Origin: an uncultured Candidatus Saccharibacteria bacterium
GTDB lineage: Bacteria; Patescibacteriota; Minisyncoccia; Phycocordibacterales; PALSA-1337
Assembly (NCBI GenBank): GCA_964468845.1
Contig: CAYXWP010000001.1
Location: forward strand, 6,411 to 70,410
DNA: 64,000 nt
Reading direction: 5' to 3'
Positions within the stretch are counted from its first letter, which is position 1. Every line of letters starts with the position of its first letter. A program made the translations under genes and the position numbers. The notes beneath the pieces were generated by a model, which saw only the letters and a list, made by a program, of their open reading frames with translations, was not told the origin of the DNA and ran no database searches. Shown piece after piece: positions 4,823-19,239 of the stretch.

Positions 4823-5530
4823 ATGAAAACGACAATTAAACTCGTAGTCTTCTACTTCCTTCTTCAATTGTGCAACCACGCCAGTGCGGCATACTCTGTT
4901 CAATCGGCTTGGTTTCCTTACGGGCCACAATACAACATCCAAGTGTACCGTCTTTTTTGGGGAACAAATAGTGGCGAGTACACGCATACGCAAGACTTTG
5001 GTTTGGAGACGAATCTCGCTCCCCGACCCGACATCATCCGTGTGTTAAATGTCACAATCGAAGTTCCCAACGCAGGACAGACTTACTATTTCATGATCAG
5101 AGGCATCGACAGCAACGGAAATGAGTTTGGGACTTCGGAGGAGTATCCTTGGTGGGTGCAACGCGAAAATGATGCACGTCCATCAATCTCCGCAATTCCC
5201 AACCGCCATTTTTTGATCAACAGTGTATCGAATACAGTGCCCTTCACAATTGGGGACGACCAGACACCACTCGATGAATTGGAAGTGTACTACACTGCAT
5301 GGAACCCGATCATCATACCAGCGACAAACATTTCGCTTGGTGGGTCCGGTGCAAATCGTACGATTACACTGACGCCGATAACTGGGCGCACAGGTACGAC
5401 CACTGTCGAAGTTATTGTTATCGATAACAATCTAAGTCCGAAAGCAACAACATTCATTGTTGAAGTTTCAGCAAATCCAGGAATTACGAGTCCTAGATTA
5501 CTTTGGTTCAAAACAGTTCCCTTGCCATAG
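4823..5530 (+). CDS. Secreted protein with signal peptide and fibronectin-III / Ig-like beta-sandwich domains
   Basis: N-terminal hydrophobic signal ending in ASAAYS. An FN3-like block (YRLFWGTNSGEYTHTQDFG...TYYFMIRGIDSNGNE) is followed by a second Ig-like segment. Confidence 0.5.
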   Translation: MKTTIKLVVFYFLLQLCNHASAAYSVQSAWFPYGPQYNIQVYRLFWGTNSGEYTHTQDFGLETNLAPRPDIIRVLNVTIEVPNAGQTYYFMIRGIDSNGNEFGTSEEYPWWVQRENDARPSISAIPNRHFLINSVSNTVPFTIGDDQTPLDELEVYYTAWNPIIIPATNISLGGSGANRTITLTPITGRTGTTTVEVIVIDNNLSPKATTFIVEVSANPGITSPRLLWFKTVPLP

Positions 5531-5599
5531 CACCTTTCGTAAAATCCGCAAATACGAACACGAACAAGAACATGTGCACATAGACGGAGTCCACGAGCC

Positions 5600-5648
5600 T
5601 GTCACTTCACTTGCCAACATTACTTGGCGGAGGTGACGGCTTTTTTTA
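5600..5648 (+). terminator. Imperfect hairpin plus T-run between convergent genes
   Basis: gtcacttcacttgcc ... ggcggaggtgac, followed by GGCTTTTTTTATTT. Confidence 0.4.
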
Positions 5649-5682
5649 TTTGAATTATTTTTAATTATTTGTATTTGCTTAC

Positions 5683-6432
5683 TTATTTATAATTATCTTT
5701 TTCTTCTTTACTAAAGTGCTCCGTGGCGTATGACAGCATTACTCTAGGCATCTTTTTATAGTATTTATTCAAAAACTTTTTTTCAATATCTCTTGAAATC
5801 CTTTTGCCAACATCACGCAACATCCAACCGACCGCCTTGTGAATTAAATCATGCTTGTCAGACAGCAACATTTCCGCCAACTTAAATACATCCTTATATT
5901 CACCCGCTTTAATGAAAGCATGCGTAGAAATTATAGAGATCCTTCTTTCCCAAATATTTTTTGACCTAGCTAGCCTATACAAAACCGCCCTATCCCTGTC
6001 CCTATACTTATCATTATCATTATTAAGCAAATAATCACCAACAATGTAACTAGCTGACAAATCCACAAGATCCCAATTATTTATATATCTAGTGTTTTTT
6101 AAATAAAATTTATAAATCGCTTTCTTAATTTTTTCATCCTCTTTTTTCTTATCTTTTGTTTTCTTATTATTTGCTCTTTCATATTGCGCTACAAGTATTT
6201 CCAAAGCTGTAAGCCTAAATTCATGGACCTCACTCTCTAATAATTTCTGAATTACATCAAAATTGGCATCAATATATTTATGCGCAATCTTTCTGATTTT
6301 GGGTACAACTATTCCAATAAAAATATCTCCCTCCCCATACTGACCCTTGCCCGTCTTAAAATATCTTGAAAGCAGTTTGGCTTTCTTTGCGTCAGCGAAA
6401 CTATTTAAATCATTGGTTATTTCTTTTATCAC
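5683..6432 (-). CDS. DNA alkylation repair enzyme (AlkD/AlkC-like HEAT-repeat glycosylase family)
   Basis: Conserved pattern FRLTALEIL...WDLVDLSASYIVGDYL...LYRLARSKNIWERRISIISTHAFIKAG...DLIHKAVGWMLRDVGK, typical of the DNA_alkylation family. Confidence 0.7.
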   Translation of the reverse strand: MIKEITNDLNSFADAKKAKLLSRYFKTGKGQYGEGDIFIGIVVPKIRKIAHKYIDANFDVIQKLLESEVHEFRLTALEILVAQYERANNKKTKDKKKEDEKIKKAIYKFYLKNTRYINNWDLVDLSASYIVGDYLLNNDNDKYRDRDRAVLYRLARSKNIWERRISIISTHAFIKAGEYKDVFKLAEMLLSDKHDLIHKAVGWMLRDVGKRISRDIEKKFLNKYYKKMPRVMLSYATEHFSKEEKDNYK

Positions 6433-6465
6433 AAAATTTTAATATATTAGTGTATAATACTTGAC

Positions 6466-7134
6466 ATGAAGGATCTTTTTTACAGATTGCCACGAAATAT
6501 AATTCGTTCTTTTTCTCCTCGTAATTTTATATGGCATCTGGTCGCATTTATTTTAACATATGTAATTGTCATTCAAGGGTTTGATTGGTCTTGGTTTCTT
6601 GCAGTCAGAGGAGAAATCGTAAACAAGATTCTATTTCCTGCAGTTATAATTGGCGCGTTTGTACCAATATTGTTGCCTCTTGGTTTTCTTGCTATTGGTA
6701 AAATACGAAAAAGCAGAAGTCCATACGAAGGCAAAAAAATAATGAATGTTGGCTGGGCGCTTGGACAAGCAGCAATTGTCGGTTATCTTATTTCCTCCTT
6801 CTATAAAATGTTTACAGGAAGAATACAACCTGACCTATCAAATCTAATTAATGATATTAGCAACAATTTCCAGTTTGGTTTTTGGAATCATGGAATATTC
6901 TGGGGCTGGCCTTCTTCACATACAACAATTGCATTCGCAACAATGGTGACGCTAATAATTCTCTATCCAAGAGGTAAGGCACTGAAATACATTGCACTGA
7001 TCTATGCTTTCTATATCGGTCTTGGAGTATCGATAGGGATACATTGGTTCTCAGAATTTATCGCTGGAGCAATAATAGGAGCTGTGATTGGTAAGGTTGT
7101 TGGTAAATGTTTTAAAGATAAAAAGATAGCGTAG
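6466..7134 (+). CDS. PAP2-family membrane phosphatase
   Basis: Multi-pass membrane protein with the PAP2 motifs KMFTGRIQPD (KX6RP-like), PSSHT (PSGH) and SIGIHWFSE (SRX5HX3D-like). Confidence 0.55.
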   Translation: MKDLFYRLPRNIIRSFSPRNFIWHLVAFILTYVIVIQGFDWSWFLAVRGEIVNKILFPAVIIGAFVPILLPLGFLAIGKIRKSRSPYEGKKIMNVGWALGQAAIVGYLISSFYKMFTGRIQPDLSNLINDISNNFQFGFWNHGIFWGWPSSHTTIAFATMVTLIILYPRGKALKYIALIYAFYIGLGVSIGIHWFSEFIAGAIIGAVIGKVVGKCFKDKKIA

Positions 7135-7764: not shown

Positions 7765-7767
7765 TTG

Positions 7768-7838
7768 CTGGGGGCCAGGGAATCGAACCCCAATACTATC
7801 CTTCAAAGGGATATGTCCTACCGTTAGACGAGCCCCCA
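7768..7838 (-). tRNA. tRNA-Gln (anticodon UUG)
   Basis: The reverse complement reads TGGGGGC-TC-GTC-TAACGGTAG-GAC-A-TATCC-CTTTGAA-GGATA-GTAT-TGGGG-TTCGATT-CCCTG-GCCCCCA-G. It has a 7-bp acceptor stem with U1-A72, a G73 discriminator, a GGTTCGATTCC T-arm and anticodon TTG. No CCA is encoded. Confidence 0.85.
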
Positions 7839-7898: not shown

Positions 7899-8348
7899 TT
7901 ACAAAGCCCTCTTTATCTCATCCTTAACCTTAAGTAGCTCCTCTTCCGCACTCGGCTCTCTATCCCCTGTCCTATAAAGCATACTTCTAGGATCATAGCC
8001 GAGTAAACCTGTGTCTCCCTTCTTTCGAGGAACAATATGTAAATGAAAATGTGGTACAGATTGTCCTGCAAGCTTGCCTTCATTCCAAACACAATTAAAA
8101 CCTTCTACGTCATAAAGCTTTTTTAAGGCATTCATTATTTTGTCTGCAAGTTCAAGAATTGCCGAACGTTCTTCTTTAGTTAAATCACTCAACTTAGCGA
8201 CACAACGAATGGGTGCAATCAAAGTATGCCCTGGAGTAATAGGAATATTAGTTGGGAAAGCCCACGCCAAGTCATTACTAATTATTTCTCTAGCTTTAAT
8301 TTCTGGCAGACTACAATATACGCACTTTTTTTCTAAATTGTTTTCCAT
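7899..8348 (-). CDS. HIT-family nucleotide hydrolase/transferase
   Basis: Histidine triad PHFHLHIVPR. Confidence 0.8.
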   Translation of the reverse strand: MENNLEKKCVYCSLPEIKAREIISNDLAWAFPTNIPITPGHTLIAPIRCVAKLSDLTKEERSAILELADKIMNALKKLYDVEGFNCVWNEGKLAGQSVPHFHLHIVPRKKGDTGLLGYDPRSMLYRTGDREPSAEEELLKVKDEIKRAL

Positions 8349-8357
8349 TTTTTAAAT

Positions 8358-9422
8358 TTACCCACACACCTCAATCACCGCCATCTCCAATGGTAAACTC
8401 TCTATATATGCCCTTCCTGTGGCATCATAAGCCTTGAGAAGCGCCAGAAGCATAGCCGAGTTAATTCCAGCCTTACCTTCAATCTTTTCGCTAGCAAGGA
8501 CTTCTAGCACCTTCCAGTCATCTTCCGAAACCTGCTCTTGTAAAGTTTTTGCTAAGGCAGGAGCATTTTTTAAAAGCAAAACCAAACGAACTTTTTCTAG
8601 CACTAGCGAAGCAAAAGTTTTCATGGAAATATTGTCTTCTCGAGCAAGGGAAATTACAGAAAGAGCCTTTTCTTTTTCGCCATGTGCTAGAGCAATTATA
8701 AAATCATTTACAAGACTTCCCTTCGGAGCACCAGTTATCATTTCAACTTCCTTGATAGTGACCTTCTTTTCATCCGCTGTACTTATAACCTTCTGAAGAA
8801 TTCCAAGTGTGTCACGGAAAGATCCATCACCAAGAAGTGCGATCAGGTCAGCAACACCAGTTTCAAGTGTATACCCTTCTTTCTTCGCAACTTTTGAAAC
8901 CAAAGTTTTCAAAATATCTCTTGTAGGTTTCTTGAAAGAAAAAACTTGGCAACGAGAAACCACAGTTTCAGGGATTTTATCTGTTTCTGTTGTGGCAAGT
9001 ACGAAGATAGCATGTGCGGGTGGTTCCTCCAGAGTTTTCAAAAGTGCATTAAATGCCTCCTTCGTGAGCATATGAACCTCGTCGATTATATAAACTTTGT
9101 AAACAGACTCAAAAGGCAAAACATTGACCCCATCACGAATCTCACGAATATCATCAATACCTCTATTTGATGCCGCATCAATTTCATAAACATCATTATC
9201 ACTAACACCTAGAGCTCTAGCAAAAATACGAGCAATGGATGTCTTTCCAGTCCCTCGACTTCCAGAAAAAAGATACGCATGCGCAATACGCTTTAATTTC
9301 AATGAATTCTCTAAAACACTGACGATATGGTCCTGCCCAATAACATCTGACCAATCATAAGGGCGATGCTTTCTATATAGAACTGATGAATTTCCTGAGC
9401 TTTCAGTTGTTTTCTTTGACAT
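8358..9422 (-). CDS. dnaX: DNA polymerase III subunit gamma/tau (short form)
   Basis: HAYLFSGSRGTGKTS Walker A, YKVYIIDEVHMLT box and a sensor region. HolB (delta prime) is a less likely alternative. Confidence 0.75.
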   Translation of the reverse strand: MSKKTTESSGNSSVLYRKHRPYDWSDVIGQDHIVSVLENSLKLKRIAHAYLFSGSRGTGKTSIARIFARALGVSDNDVYEIDAASNRGIDDIREIRDGVNVLPFESVYKVYIIDEVHMLTKEAFNALLKTLEEPPAHAIFVLATTETDKIPETVVSRCQVFSFKKPTRDILKTLVSKVAKKEGYTLETGVADLIALLGDGSFRDTLGILQKVISTADEKKVTIKEVEMITGAPKGSLVNDFIIALAHGEKEKALSVISLAREDNISMKTFASLVLEKVRLVLLLKNAPALAKTLQEQVSEDDWKVLEVLASEKIEGKAGINSAMLLALLKAYDATGRAYIESLPLEMAVIEVCG

Positions 9423-17075: not shown

Positions 17076-17642
17076 TTATTTTCGTGCAATAAAGTTATAA
17101 ATATGCCAATGTTTCGTTCGGCCTTCTTTCGTCTCCTCCTCACGAAAAGTGATGATTTCCATGTCATTTAAATATCCTCTAGCTTCGTCAGCGCTTAAAT
17201 ATGTCATTCCAACAGTCTTTGACCATTGGTCATGATCACCAAACATTTGTCCACAAAATATACCACCCTTTTTCAGCGATAACTTAATATTCGTAATGAC
17301 ACGACCAAAGTGCTCTGGCTCACAATGAGGCAAAGAATACATTGCTGATGCTAAAATATATTCATCAGCAGGAAATTTATAATCTTCAAATGAAGTCACA
17401 AATGTATGCAATCGCTCGTTTTTTATTTCCAATGCCTCTTTCTCTAATAGAGGGCTTTTATCAATAACTGTCACATCGAATCCTTTTTGTAGAAGATACT
17501 TAGTATCCCTCAACGCCCCTCCACCAATATCAATTGCTTTCCCTGTATTCTTAACATACAAAAGAGCCTCAGCAAGCAATCCGTGTGAAGGTTGCGCCCG
17601 TGTAAAATCATAATATTCAGACCAATCTTTTTTATCTGTCAT
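17076..17642 (-). CDS. Class I SAM-dependent methyltransferase (TehB-like)
   Basis: Motif I AIDIGGGALRDTKYLLQKG and the acidic motif II FDVTVIDKS. Confidence 0.65.
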   Translation of the reverse strand: MTDKKDWSEYYDFTRAQPSHGLLAEALLYVKNTGKAIDIGGGALRDTKYLLQKGFDVTVIDKSPLLEKEALEIKNERLHTFVTSFEDYKFPADEYILASAMYSLPHCEPEHFGRVITNIKLSLKKGGIFCGQMFGDHDQWSKTVGMTYLSADEARGYLNDMEIITFREEETKEGRTKHWHIYNFIARK

Positions 17643-17675
17643 AATTAATACTTTAATACTAACACAGCTATAACT

Positions 17676-17694
17676 GGTGACCCTACAGAGAATC
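17676..17694 (-). repeat. 19-bp direct repeat of the tRNA-Glu 3' end (T-arm and acceptor), followed by an encoded CCA: tRNA fragment / putative att remnant
   Basis: gtgaccctacagagaatcg is identical to 17817-17835 inside the intact tRNA-Glu. The minus-strand read ends ...CGATTCTCTGTAGGGTCACCA. Confidence 0.5.
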
Positions 17695-17780
17695 GGTCAC
17701 AGGTCTCGCACTGCTGTGCTCGCCTGCGACCCTGATTCGCTCGCTCCGTCTTTCGATTCTCCGAGCCTCCCTTACGATAT

Positions 17781-17809
17781 GAAAAAGACTAGAACAAGTC
17801 TAGTCTTTT
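17781..17809. terminator. Bidirectional intrinsic terminator just downstream of tRNA-Glu
   Basis: aaaaagactaga / tctagtcttttt 12-bp stem with a 5-nt loop. Confidence 0.6.
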
Positions 17810-17817
17810 TCAATCGA

Positions 17818-17889
17818 GTGACCCTACAGAGAATCGAACTCTGCTTCCATCCTTGAGAAGGATGTGTCCTAGCCGATAGACGATAGGGC
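17818..17889 (-). tRNA. tRNA-Glu (anticodon CUC)
   Basis: The reverse complement reads GGCCCTA-TC-GTCT-ATCGGCTA-GGAC-A-CATCC-TTCTCAA-GGATG-GAAG-CAGAG-TTCGATT-CTCTG-TAGGGTC-A. It has a clean cloverleaf, and no CCA is encoded. Confidence 0.85.
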
Positions 17890-17890
17890 C

Positions 17891-17917
17891 GAAAAAAGCG
17901 ATCTGCTTCGCTTTTTT
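17891..17917. terminator. Hairpin flanked by A and T runs between murF and tRNA-Glu
   Basis: aaaaaagcga-tctgct-tcgcttttttt. Confidence 0.45.
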
Positions 17918-17988
17918 TAATACCGCTCGAAGAGCGCTGACCGTTGTTGAGCGAAGCGAAACAGGTCAGTACTACAATAAAACAAAAA

Positions 17989-19239
17989 CTACTTCTTCGC
18001 AAGCCAATTTGGATCTTGGCGTACAAGCAACTCCTCAGCCTTTTCTGGCTCAAGAAGAATAGCCTTCGTTGCCCTTTCCAAACGAACAAACTGTGATCCT
18101 TTTATAAGAACAACATCACCCTGCCCAACAATACCTTTTAAATATTCACCAGCATCAGCAGAAGAATCAAAATGCACAGCACTCTCACTCATTTGCTTCG
18201 CTCTTGGTCCAACAGTAATTAAAATATTACTTGCCTTAACAGCAAGCTCCCCTGCCTTCTTGTGCTCCTCAGCAGAGAATTTTCCGAGCTCCATCATATC
18301 TCCAAGTACTGCAATTTTTTTGCCAACCGTTTGAATTTTTGATAAAGCAGAAAGTGCTTCCTGAAGAGCGTCTGGAGATGAGTTGTATGTATCGTCAATA
18401 ATAGTACAACCATTCATACCAGCAATAATATTCATACGACCTCTAGGTGGAACATGGTTTGAAAAAGATTCAACAATGTTTGAAATAGGAATATTCTTTG
18501 CAATACCAACCGTAGCTGCAGCAATTACAGGATATATTTGCTGATTTCCAATTACCTTTTTTATTACAACTGGAACCGCATTCCCCTCATAATTTAATTT
18601 GAATGAAATTCCGTTGGTGATGTCCAACTGAATATCCGAGGCAGAAATAGTAGCAGGATTATCAATTCCAAAAGTCAAAACCTTTTGCTTTAATTGTTTT
18701 GCACCCTCCATAAGCCTTTTGTCATCAGCAGAAATAACTAACACGCCATCTTTTTTCAAAGACTTTGTTAATGTAAATTTCTCAACAAAAACATCCTCGG
18801 GTGATTTAAAAAATTCAACATGAACAGGAATTTCACTTACTTTCGTTATAACAACAACATCAGACTTGAACCACGAAGTCATACGAAGAATATCGCCAGG
18901 ATGATCAGACCCAACTTCCAAAACTAAACATTCGGGATACTTTGATTTAAATAATATCAACTCCAAGCCCTCAAAAATGTTCTTCAACCAAACCACTGGA
19001 TCATTCCATCCATTTTGACAGCCAAGTATTGTAAGTGGAATACCAATATCACTGTTAAAACTTTTATCACTTTTCCTAACATAACCAGTTTTTTCTAAAA
19101 CAGTATACACAGCATCCTTTGTAGAAGTCTTGCCGACACTACCGGTGATTGAAACAATACTTGGATTATATTTTTTTAAGACAAGTTTAGACTCAAGTAT
19201 CAGTATTTTTGTAATTAAATTCTTGAAAAATGATTTCAT
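17989..19239 (-). CDS. murF: UDP-N-acetylmuramoyl-tripeptide--D-alanyl-D-alanine ligase
   Basis: ITGSVGKTSTKD P-loop, a Mur ligase middle domain and the C-terminal IIDDTYNSSP motif. Confidence 0.85.
   Translation of the reverse strand: MKSFFKNLITKILILESKLVLKKYNPSIVSITGSVGKTSTKDAVYTVLEKTGYVRKSDKSFNSDIGIPLTILGCQNGWNDPVVWLKNIFEGLELILFKSKYPECLVLEVGSDHPGDILRMTSWFKSDVVVITKVSEIPVHVEFFKSPEDVFVEKFTLTKSLKKDGVLVISADDKRLMEGAKQLKQKVLTFGIDNPATISASDIQLDITNGISFKLNYEGNAVPVVIKKVIGNQQIYPVIAAATVGIAKNIPISNIVESFSNHVPPRGRMNIIAGMNGCTIIDDTYNSSPDALQEALSALSKIQTVGKKIAVLGDMMELGKFSAEEHKKAGELAVKASNILITVGPRAKQMSESAVHFDSSADAGEYLKGIVGQGDVVLIKGSQFVRLERATKAILLEPEKAEELLVRQDPNWLAKK

Follow-up and report, generated by a model that had tools for sequence, protein, structure and literature searches.

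A folded module with a duplicated tRNA 3' end behind tRNA-Glu(CUC) and its family behind tRNA genes of Patescibacteria

A direct repeat from the T-loop to the 3' end of a tRNA gene is the expected footprint of integrases which use the T-loop sublocation. The locus described here resembles such tRNA/tmRNA integrase sites, CIMEs included, in its T-loop-to-3'-end repeat, where one side keeps the gene intact and the other has a partial copy, and within its family the tmRNA and occasionally the 3' end of a protein gene are handled alike. Small repeats form a second group of similar elements. REP/REPIN sequences, Rickettsia palindromic elements, MITEs and mitochondrial GC-cluster or hairpin elements, among them the hairpin elements of sponge mitochondria (PMC2800124), are likewise short, multi-copy, GC-rich hairpins in AT-rich compact genomes. 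They share with the present module the lack of an ORF, a patchy distribution, tandem arrays and service as a landing pad for IS110 (locus L003).

The nearest topic in the literature was the group I introns which interrupt the anticodon loop of tRNAs in Patescibacteria, and a method note of the same paper mentions introns with a boundary at the tmRNA T loop (PMC13011429). Like the module, these introns are structured RNA insertions in tRNA-type genes, and the T-loop is a known insertion point. No description of the module family itself was found in the literature, and it appears to be undescribed.

A preliminary description of the window, that is, the whole 64-kb stretch of DNA analysed, had noticed a second copy of a tRNA-Glu 3' end and proposed an att-site scar or a tRNA pseudogene. 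Here the repeated tRNA end is read as the closing right arm of a folded insertion module, not as a prophage scar.

The repeated 3' end of tRNA-Glu(CUC) in the window

The intact tRNA-Glu(CUC) gene was located at 17819-17890 on the minus strand by ARAGORN and by the Rfam tRNA model (51.5 bits), in synteny with murF. The earlier account of this gene and its repeat holds, except that its positions were one base off. The tRNA gene lies next to murF, as that account stated; murF (17989-19239) is upstream and a gene for a TehB-like methyltransferase (17076-17642) downstream. The tRNA gene ends with ...GTTCGATTCTCTGTAGGGTCA; the bases after it are CTC, which means that it encodes no CCA. Copy 1 of the direct repeat (17818-17836, minus strand) covers tRNA C56 to A73 plus C74, that is, the 3' part of the T-loop, the 3' strands of T-stem and acceptor, the discriminator and one further base. 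Copy 2, also called IR-R, was found at 17677-17695 on the same strand, beyond a stretch of about 125 nt. Within the 64 kb the 19-mer CGATTCTCTGTAGGGTCAC has exactly two occurrences, both on the minus strand, and two matches were seen in 0 of 100 dinucleotide shuffles, which bears out the exact 19-nt repeat as real.

Copy 2 together with CA completes a CCA (17675-17677, minus strand; ...GGGTCA-CCA), in agreement with the observation that this copy carries CCA and the tRNA gene does not. This CCA is probably the original 3' flank of the tRNA-Glu gene, since the insert-free relatives L005 and L009 encode CCA directly after the tRNA.

The G+C content between the repeat copies was 0.52-0.62, against about 0.2-0.45 in the AT-rich region around them. 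The stretch before copy 2 had been characterized as GC-rich and unlike tRNA, which is correct, yet it holds a conserved family fold and is not debris. A tRNA scan had been suggested as a check for a second gene; ARAGORN, and the Rfam tRNA model even at E up to 10, found no second tRNA or tmRNA at the locus, and no tRNA 5' half precedes copy 2, as had been said. Neither an integrase nor a remnant of one was present between or beside the repeats among the ORFs and domains of the locus, and a simple promoter scan gave no convincing promoter for the module.

The object between the copies is a complete family member, composed of a terminator-like hairpin, an anti-T segment and a core of about 60-70 nt. 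The spacer hairpin (17775-17816, minus strand) reads CGAT-TGAAAAAGACTAGA / loop CTTGT / TCTAGTCTTTTTCA-(T)ATCG and resembles a bidirectional terminator. At its centre 17780-17793 and 17799-17812 form an inverted repeat of 14 bp without mismatch, flanked by an A-run and, on the other side, by a T-run. The hairpin reported before as a strong bidirectional terminator was recovered in this form, but it was not called by a simple terminator scan, because the T-run sits within the stem.

The anti-T segment, or IR-L (17754-17763, minus strand; CGGAGAATCG), was assigned as the 5' strand of helix P1 by the single-sequence fold and by covariance model alignment. It complements CGATTCTCTG (C56-G65) of either repeat copy, one G.U included. 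The three-way-junction core (17695-17754, minus strand) extends from GAAAG to GTGACC and was delimited by the match of covariance model R1 and by covariation. Its elements are P2 (G-N-C pairing with G-N'-C) and a GGA/GA internal loop, then hairpin Pa and a G-rich joiner, and finally P3 (17723-17731 paired with 17695-17703) and hairpin Pb (17708-17719), whose loop is AGCA. The closing helix P1 is composed of anti-T and the duplicated T-loop from C56, with the first 10 nt of copy 2 as its 3' strand. Hairpin Pa is truncated in the window, so this copy may be partly or slightly decayed.

Model R1, which was built from 33 metagenome copies with the window left out, gave a single match in the 64-kb window, at 17681-17768 on the minus strand (60.6 bits, E 1.6e-16). 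The short spacer between the repeats had been taken as the remnant of a deleted or excised element. This did not hold up, for it is instead a complete module of a family whose members measure about 90-150 nt each.

The gene order murF-tRNA-Glu(CUC) was conserved in 29 of 38 related loci. Comparison of this site across relatives, which had been proposed earlier, did reveal variation: the insert was present at about half of the orthologous murF-tRNA-Glu loci and absent at the rest. In several of these relatives MurF is 40-69% identical to that of the window, yet a second copy of the tRNA 3' end is present 140-220 nt downstream, and it always equals the own local tRNA, the T-loop/T-stem sequences being different (GATTCTCTG, GACTCCCTG, GATTCCCCG and AATTCCCTG). 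Their inserts share a GC-rich motif, ...GAATCGAAAGNCGGAGCGAGCG...GGGTCGCNGGC...CCTGTGAC, directly before the copy. R1 also matched the murF-tRNA-Glu loci L006, L010, L013, L018 and L022, and in L003, where the core of the insert is split by an IS110-family transposase gene, it matched the 3' half of the interrupted copy. The module was found at this locus even in genomes where MurF shares no more than 47-69% identity with that of the window. The duplicates of L006 and L010 match the tRNA next to them, while their anti-T keeps the mismatching GAGAATCG, which indicates that the duplicate is locally templated or homogenised and that the anti-T moves together with the unit. No pair of filled and empty alleles was seen at the locus; four near-identical contigs all carry the same arrangement.

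A module family behind tRNA genes and its fold

The core pattern GAAAGNCGGA...GGGTCG...ACNNNTGACC was used for the search and matched at least 120 metagenome contigs. R1 recovered 107 copies in the fetched sequence. Among the 122 matches listed, 99 lie within 300 nt 3' of a tRNA or tmRNA on the same strand, the adjacent genes represent 29 anticodons, 14 amino acids and three tmRNAs, and the median distance from tRNA end to module is 63 nt. Seven further pattern matches sit at the edge of a contig. Of the rest, several follow tRNAs which were missed by ARAGORN and in which T-arm and acceptor are still visible; some of these tRNAs probably contain introns. In true copies the sequence before the core complements the local T-loop and the sequence after ...GTGAC equals the local tRNA from C56; the pattern matches L087, L101 and L116 are chance.

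The modules are multi-copy and extragenic, with 2-4 copies on single contigs, where only some of the tRNAs carry one. A module family resident in at least 100 copies behind many tRNA genes of Patescibacteria was thereby shown, on metagenome contigs which bear no taxonomic assignment of their own. Three unrelated conserved cores occupy the same niche, namely type A, type B (10 copies) and type D (4 copies). The presence of three core types in one niche also resembles modular aptamers on one platform. Rfam 15 gave no non-tRNA match at the gathering score and, over the modules, only chance-level matches at E up to 10 in a search of short stretches and canonical members. No known ribozyme or riboswitch class in Rfam matched core types A, B or D.

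This distribution bears on the reading of the two repeat copies as attL and attR of an element of the tRNA-targeting tyrosine-integrase type, be it a prophage, an island or an integrase-less CIME, that has lost its body by deletion. The exact 19-nt repeat from T-loop to tRNA 3' end, the CCA behind the distal copy only and the different occupancy among relatives would all be in line with it. Against it stand the lack of any integrase ORF or remnant at the locus, and the 125-nt insert, which is a full-length match to a conserved non-coding fold. The same module lies behind at least 29 tRNA species and tmRNA, a spread that a single site-specific integrase would not yield. The core pattern had no match in viral contigs, and the phage and plasmid collections gave a trivial terminator match only and none to the core. 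Among about 120 loci no gene was found between the repeats, with the exception of the IS110 gene inside the core in L003; no autonomous copy was present among them, and no linked transposase, reverse transcriptase, integrase or HUH enzyme was found for the family. The earlier att interpretation was right as to an insertion footprint at the tRNA 3' end, but an integrase scar is very improbable and is largely refuted, with neither a recombinase nor a restriction to few sites being found.

Copy 2 as a decayed tandem tRNA-Glu or a chance local duplication is hardly credible. tRNA genes do often duplicate in tandem, and an acceptor 5'-like strand precedes the module in the type B relatives. A tRNA-like 5' half was nevertheless not detected by ARAGORN or Rfam, the DNA on the 5' side of the copy holds a conserved fold which is not that of a tRNA, and the same architecture exists at 99 other tRNA loci. 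At the G.U sites of the tRNA 5' strand, the left arm follows the perfect complement of the 3' strand at about 20 positions and a copy of the 5' strand at 7, which argues against an origin of this arm from a decayed tandem tRNA, and that origin was rejected. The pseudogene or partial duplication proposed at first, and likewise chance duplication, is refuted by the family-wide recurrence of the non-tRNA core.

The proposed fold is based on 33 copies of the 66-nt class, which were aligned without gaps. Its 5' part comprises P1 (the two flanks), an AAA joiner, P2 (G-N-C/G-N'-C) and the GGA/GA internal loop, and its 3' part comprises Pa with a GANG loop, a GG(G) joiner, P3, a bulged A and Pb with an AGCA-type loop. 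P3 pairs GGUCGNNNG with CNNNGUGAC and includes an invariant G.U, where many such invariant columns reflect ascertainment, the copies having been gathered by a sequence pattern. Across the 33 copies 86% of cells were paired against 72% in shuffled alignments, none of 500 shuffles reaching 86%, and double-sided changes numbered 168 against 60; slid controls gave about 40% paired cells. P2, Pa and P3 plus Pb reached 96-99%. For all 107 copies 91% of cells were paired against 69% when shuffled (0 of 500 shuffles reached it), with 649 double-sided changes against 186, in an alignment which was made by the covariance model and is biased towards it. The P1 pairs covary with the local T-loop across the family, and the pair GAAAG-N...GAG-N' was seen as all four Watson-Crick types. 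Compensatory changes are therefore far above both shuffled and slid controls, as is expected of a structured RNA in general.

In the core helices G.U outnumbered A.C by 59 to 3 when read on the tRNA-sense strand, 33 of the 59 being imposed by the search pattern, so that 26 against 3 remain. This excess argues that the folded strand is the tRNA-sense strand, as RNA or single-stranded DNA. An antisense small RNA or primer-binding site had been considered, with the plus strand running from TGG through the complement of the tRNA 3' end to a fold and a terminator; it was ruled out by the same 59 to 3 count and by the weaker fold of the plus strand.

Within P1 the anti-T reliably pairs only about C56-C62, and 3.2 of 5 T-stem positions pair against 3.0 of 5 with random partners. 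Pairing in the T-stem at random level means that the acceptor part of the duplicate is unnecessary for the fold, and this part looks like a by-product of the arrival of the unit. A full-length palindrome as part of the fold was dismissed for its random-level pairing past about C62.

Such a fold could belong to a host-functional structured RNA in the tRNA 3' trailer, which would act as a maturation switch or chaperone or be excised as a small RNA by tRNA-processing enzymes. In the switch form, anti-T would pair either with the T-arm of the tRNA itself or with the downstream decoy, and the core would decide between them as a sensor or protein-binding domain. This is the main rival of the explanation favoured below, although on the whole it seems rather unlikely. 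It is favoured by the strong and specific conservation of the fold with compensatory changes, by the tRNA-sense strand being the folded one, by the maintenance of the module at the orthologous murF-tRNA-Glu locus across deep relatives, and by three unrelated cores on one anti-T/T platform, as in riboswitch modularity. In addition, the predicted minimum-energy fold of tRNA plus trailer is not that of a tRNA (-95.4 kcal/mol, z -6.6); this prediction pairs the T-arm of the tRNA with anti-T, and copy 2 with the 5' strand of the acceptor. Some loci also retain a perfect 17-nt complement of the tRNA 3' end.

Insertion signature, spread and possible origin

In about 30 of 41 intact repeats the duplicate begins at C56 directly after the core (...GTGAC). 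It mostly ends at C74 or A76, and its lengths cluster at 19-22 nt with extremes of 18 and 56 nt; a few are long, such as 27 nt and 56 nt (L123). Tandem arrays were present in L113 and L125. In L073 the module follows a protein gene with a duplicate of about 80 nt at about 90% identity, and L130 has the mirror layout with the module upstream, on the 5' side, of tRNA-Phe; in both, the interrupted gene stays intact thanks to the duplicate, as at tRNAs. Variant cores within long arbitrary hairpins were observed in L069, L078 and L133/L140. Two spacer types, CGAC-A-run-hairpin-T-run-GTCG and AATGATNNGCGAGGA...ATCATTGCG, recur behind different tRNAs, thus the unit includes the spacer. Spacers of the window type (CGAC...GTCG) after tRNA-Glu or tRNA-Arg were seen in L003, L018, L067, L077, L099, L130 and L136.

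At pattern-free positions cores next to the same tRNA species shared an identity of 0.676 and cores next to different species one of 0.678, and 12 of the 13 pairs with at least 0.9 identity for which both tRNAs are known sit behind different ones. Core similarity is thus independent of the adjacent tRNA, which points to duplicative spread. L075, L076 and L081 are close relatives whose tRNA-Leu genes are identical; their right arms are in different states, and their flanks decay fast. The family is consequently best described as a repeat spreading duplicatively with turnover, into which 29 independently inherited cis-elements do not fit. Several of these observations weigh against a host-functional trailer RNA: the module on only a subset of tRNAs per contig, the missing module at about half of the orthologous loci, the quick decay of flanks among close relatives with identical tRNAs, the core similarity unrelated to tRNA identity, the terminator-like hairpin between tRNA and module, and the copies behind a protein gene and in arbitrary hairpins.

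The favoured explanation, held with a little more belief than doubt, is that the module is a small non-autonomous selfish structured repeat, which inserts at the T-loop/3' end of tRNA genes and duplicates its target. The unit of spacer, anti-T and core would be a structure-dependent repeat, copied to the tRNA T-loop/3' end without being autonomous. Anti-T and the T-loop-like end would supply homology, microhomology or docking. Copying would duplicate the segment from C56 to the gene end, and an intact tRNA would be kept upstream. Recombination between the repeats may later keep the copies identical, make tandem arrays, or delete the unit cleanly. The copying route could be a template switch in replication, or a staggered-nick or target-primed insertion that uses a trans-acting factor. 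Most likely the module would be transcribed in the cell as a tRNA 3' trailer. The main weakness of the explanation lies in the negative searches for an enzyme, for an autonomous copy and for a pair of filled and empty alleles.

Two further features, the persistence at murF-tRNA-Glu and the strong conservation of the fold in streamlined genomes, fit a host function just as well as a selfish repeat, which is a point against the favoured explanation.

The position of the junction also allows for RNA capture, in which the core, as a catalytic or guide-like RNA, would dock on T-loops by means of anti-T and be joined 5' of C56, its copies being fixed by reverse transcription. In the modelled structure the junction ...GUGAC|C56 would lie at a coaxial P3/P1 stack beside a guide-like helix, and the duplicate corresponds to a 3' fragment C56-A73/76. 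CCA stood only after copy 2 in 9 loci, the window counted, only after the tRNA in 3, and after neither in 18. The split of 9 to 3 leans towards capture but is not significant, and the 18 loci with CCA after neither copy speak against it, as do the lack of a reverse transcriptase linked to the family and of a match of the core to any known ribozyme class in Rfam. RNA capture is for these reasons improbable, and CCA after copy 2 was not accepted as proof of a retro-copied mature tRNA, given the same non-significant 9 against 3 loci.

Somewhat less doubtful, though still unlikely, is a structured RNA or single-stranded DNA device which acts directly on tRNA 3' halves, either by T-loop-guided self-insertion 5' of C56 or as a maturation switch. 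With self-insertion, whether independent of protein or assisted in trans, anti-T would serve as the guide, and the module would represent a new class of structure-guided, tRNA-targeting mobile elements. As a switch, the three core types would be sensor domains toggling anti-T between the tRNA and the decoy copy.

Significance and comparison with known systems

The genomes of Patescibacteria are very small yet keep many copies of the module, which makes this a question of selfish elements or of tRNA biology. The type A family and at least two sister cores, B and D, are outside Rfam 15, and in the annotation of MAGs such modules will be misread as att sites, tRNA pseudogenes or terminators. The module is a defined RNA fold that can be tested, and its closing helix, which is linked to the T-loop, is programmable. 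It also shows how an element can enter essential genes without destroying them. A catalytic, ligand-binding or guide-like fold would make it a new class of RNA; a purely selfish module would amount to a new type of repeat in bacteria, whose rule of target duplication is unusual. Either way the family is of interest to specialists of RNA and of mobile elements.

Three-way-junction aptamers of riboswitches resemble the module in the covarying P1, P2 and P3, in P1 strands that can pair alternatively, and in several cores on one platform. Riboswitches are located upstream of a coherent gene set, whereas the module lies 3' of tRNAs, is multi-copy and variably present, and has different downstream genes between loci, which is not the setting of a riboswitch.

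Target-primed (LINE-like) and template-switch (DUP-INV-DUP) insertions are similar in having one junction fixed beside the 3' end of the element and the other looser, in long duplications, and in occasional inverted copies of the target. The module differs from them in being bacterial, and we know of no reverse transcriptase or endonuclease for its family.

In contrast to the group I introns of Patescibacteria tRNAs (PMC13011429), the module lies outside the intact tRNA, needs no splicing, and measures about 66 nt rather than more than 200 nt; Intron_gpI gave no match at E up to 10. Compared with integrase sites, the insert is only about 100-150 nt long, lacks a recombinase, and belongs to one family present at 29 or more tRNA species. 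It has, moreover, a covarying single-strand fold of which the partial tRNA copy is itself a part.

Small repeats have conserved terminal repeats, and their target duplications are short and fixed or missing. A MITE does not agree with arms that follow the local T-loop and tRNA or with duplications of 18-56 nt, and REPINs are without the target duplicates which the module carries. In the module the arms come from the local tRNA, the duplication of 19-22 nt or longer starts at a defined T-loop position, and the conserved part, unlike that of palindromic repeats, is a three-way junction.

Surroundings and predicted fold of tRNA-Glu

The predicted minimum-energy fold of the tRNA-Glu gene with its trailer in the window (17671-17890, minus) was not a cloverleaf (-95.4 kcal/mol, z -6.6). 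In this fold the second copy of the tRNA 3' end paired with the acceptor 5' strand, and anti-T, the short left arm of the module that is complementary to the T-loop, paired with the 3' strand of the T-arm. Nested GC-rich hairpins were present in the spacer between murF and the tRNA (17891-17988, minus), with a terminator hairpin of A-run and T-run ending 1 base ahead of the tRNA 5' end, so that no obvious room was left for a tRNA promoter. Besides tRNA-Glu, the window contains a single tRNA, tRNA-Gln(UUG) (7767-7838, minus), in which CCA was likewise not encoded, and no module was found downstream of it.

Other cores behind tRNA genes

A second conserved core, type B, had the same position behind tRNAs as the three-way-junction core (type A), and the two were sometimes in tandem. 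It was laid out as anti-T-GAAGACCTTGAG...hairpin...CGAAAGGTGTAC-hairpin, with a TGTAA loop in the latter hairpin, and had no match in Rfam. Type B was located in related loci L001 (5441-5553), L024 (5855-5946), L025 (5569-5683) and L094 (310-424), and also in L073, L105, L130, L132, L069 and L177. A third core with the same flanks, type D, was arranged as anti-T-GAACGNCGGAGCGAT...CCGCGAGNCGGTGCCCAG... and was present in L029 (5447-5570), L034 (5524-5646), L105 and L149 (from 2556). Ahead of the type D core in L029 there was a strand resembling the 5' side of an acceptor (GACTCTA), together with a hairpin whose loop was CTGC.

Modules at other genes and tRNA ends

In L078, a tmRNA gene (8219-8640, Rfam tmRNA 84.5 bits) was followed about 50 nt downstream by a type A module (8693-8774), and tmRNA was upstream of three pattern matches among the matches listed in the metagenome set. 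In L073, a module (5046-5139, minus) lay just 3' of a protein-coding gene's stop codon. The 3' end of this gene was duplicated after the module (about 80 nt, about 90% identity), and the left arm was in part the reverse complement of the beginning of this duplicate. The order was mirrored in L130 (747-837 and flanks), where 41 nt from the 5' part of tRNA-Phe were duplicated upstream of the module and the intact tRNA-Phe lay downstream of it.

In both L063 and L122, a tRNA 3' end (T-arm and acceptor) was located some 250 nt ahead of the module. The sequence 5' of this end was conserved over about 250 nt but not tRNA-like, and no tRNA was called there by ARAGORN. These tRNAs probably contain introns, like the Patescibacteria tRNAs reported to have group I introns in the anticodon loop (PMC13011429). 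In the two-unit array of L125, the last tRNA-end copy (CAAGTCCTCTCCGCGGCACCA), which follows the second unit, had an acceptor strand unlike that of the upstream tRNA-Leu(GAG). This difference suggests that the copy recombined with a different tRNA-Leu gene or was carried over from one.

Insertions within the module

A 14-nt mini-hairpin, such as ACATGTACTCATGA or AAGTGTACTCACGG, was inserted in the right arm, within its T-loop copy, visible after ...GTGACC when L075 was compared with L081, and present also in L064, L067, L073, L086, L089, L117, L122 and L128. Its stems covaried around a TACT loop, and its position looks like a nested insertion hotspot.

At L003, an orthologous murF-tRNA-Glu locus, the core of the module was split between ...GAGGCGG and GGGGTCGC... 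by an IS110-family transposase element (5477-6812), whose ORF (5678-6748, minus) matched Pfam DEDD_Tnp_IS110 and Transposase_20. The multi-copy module appears to be a landing site for the element in L003, a use comparable to that of REP sequences, which are landing sites for IS110 relatives.
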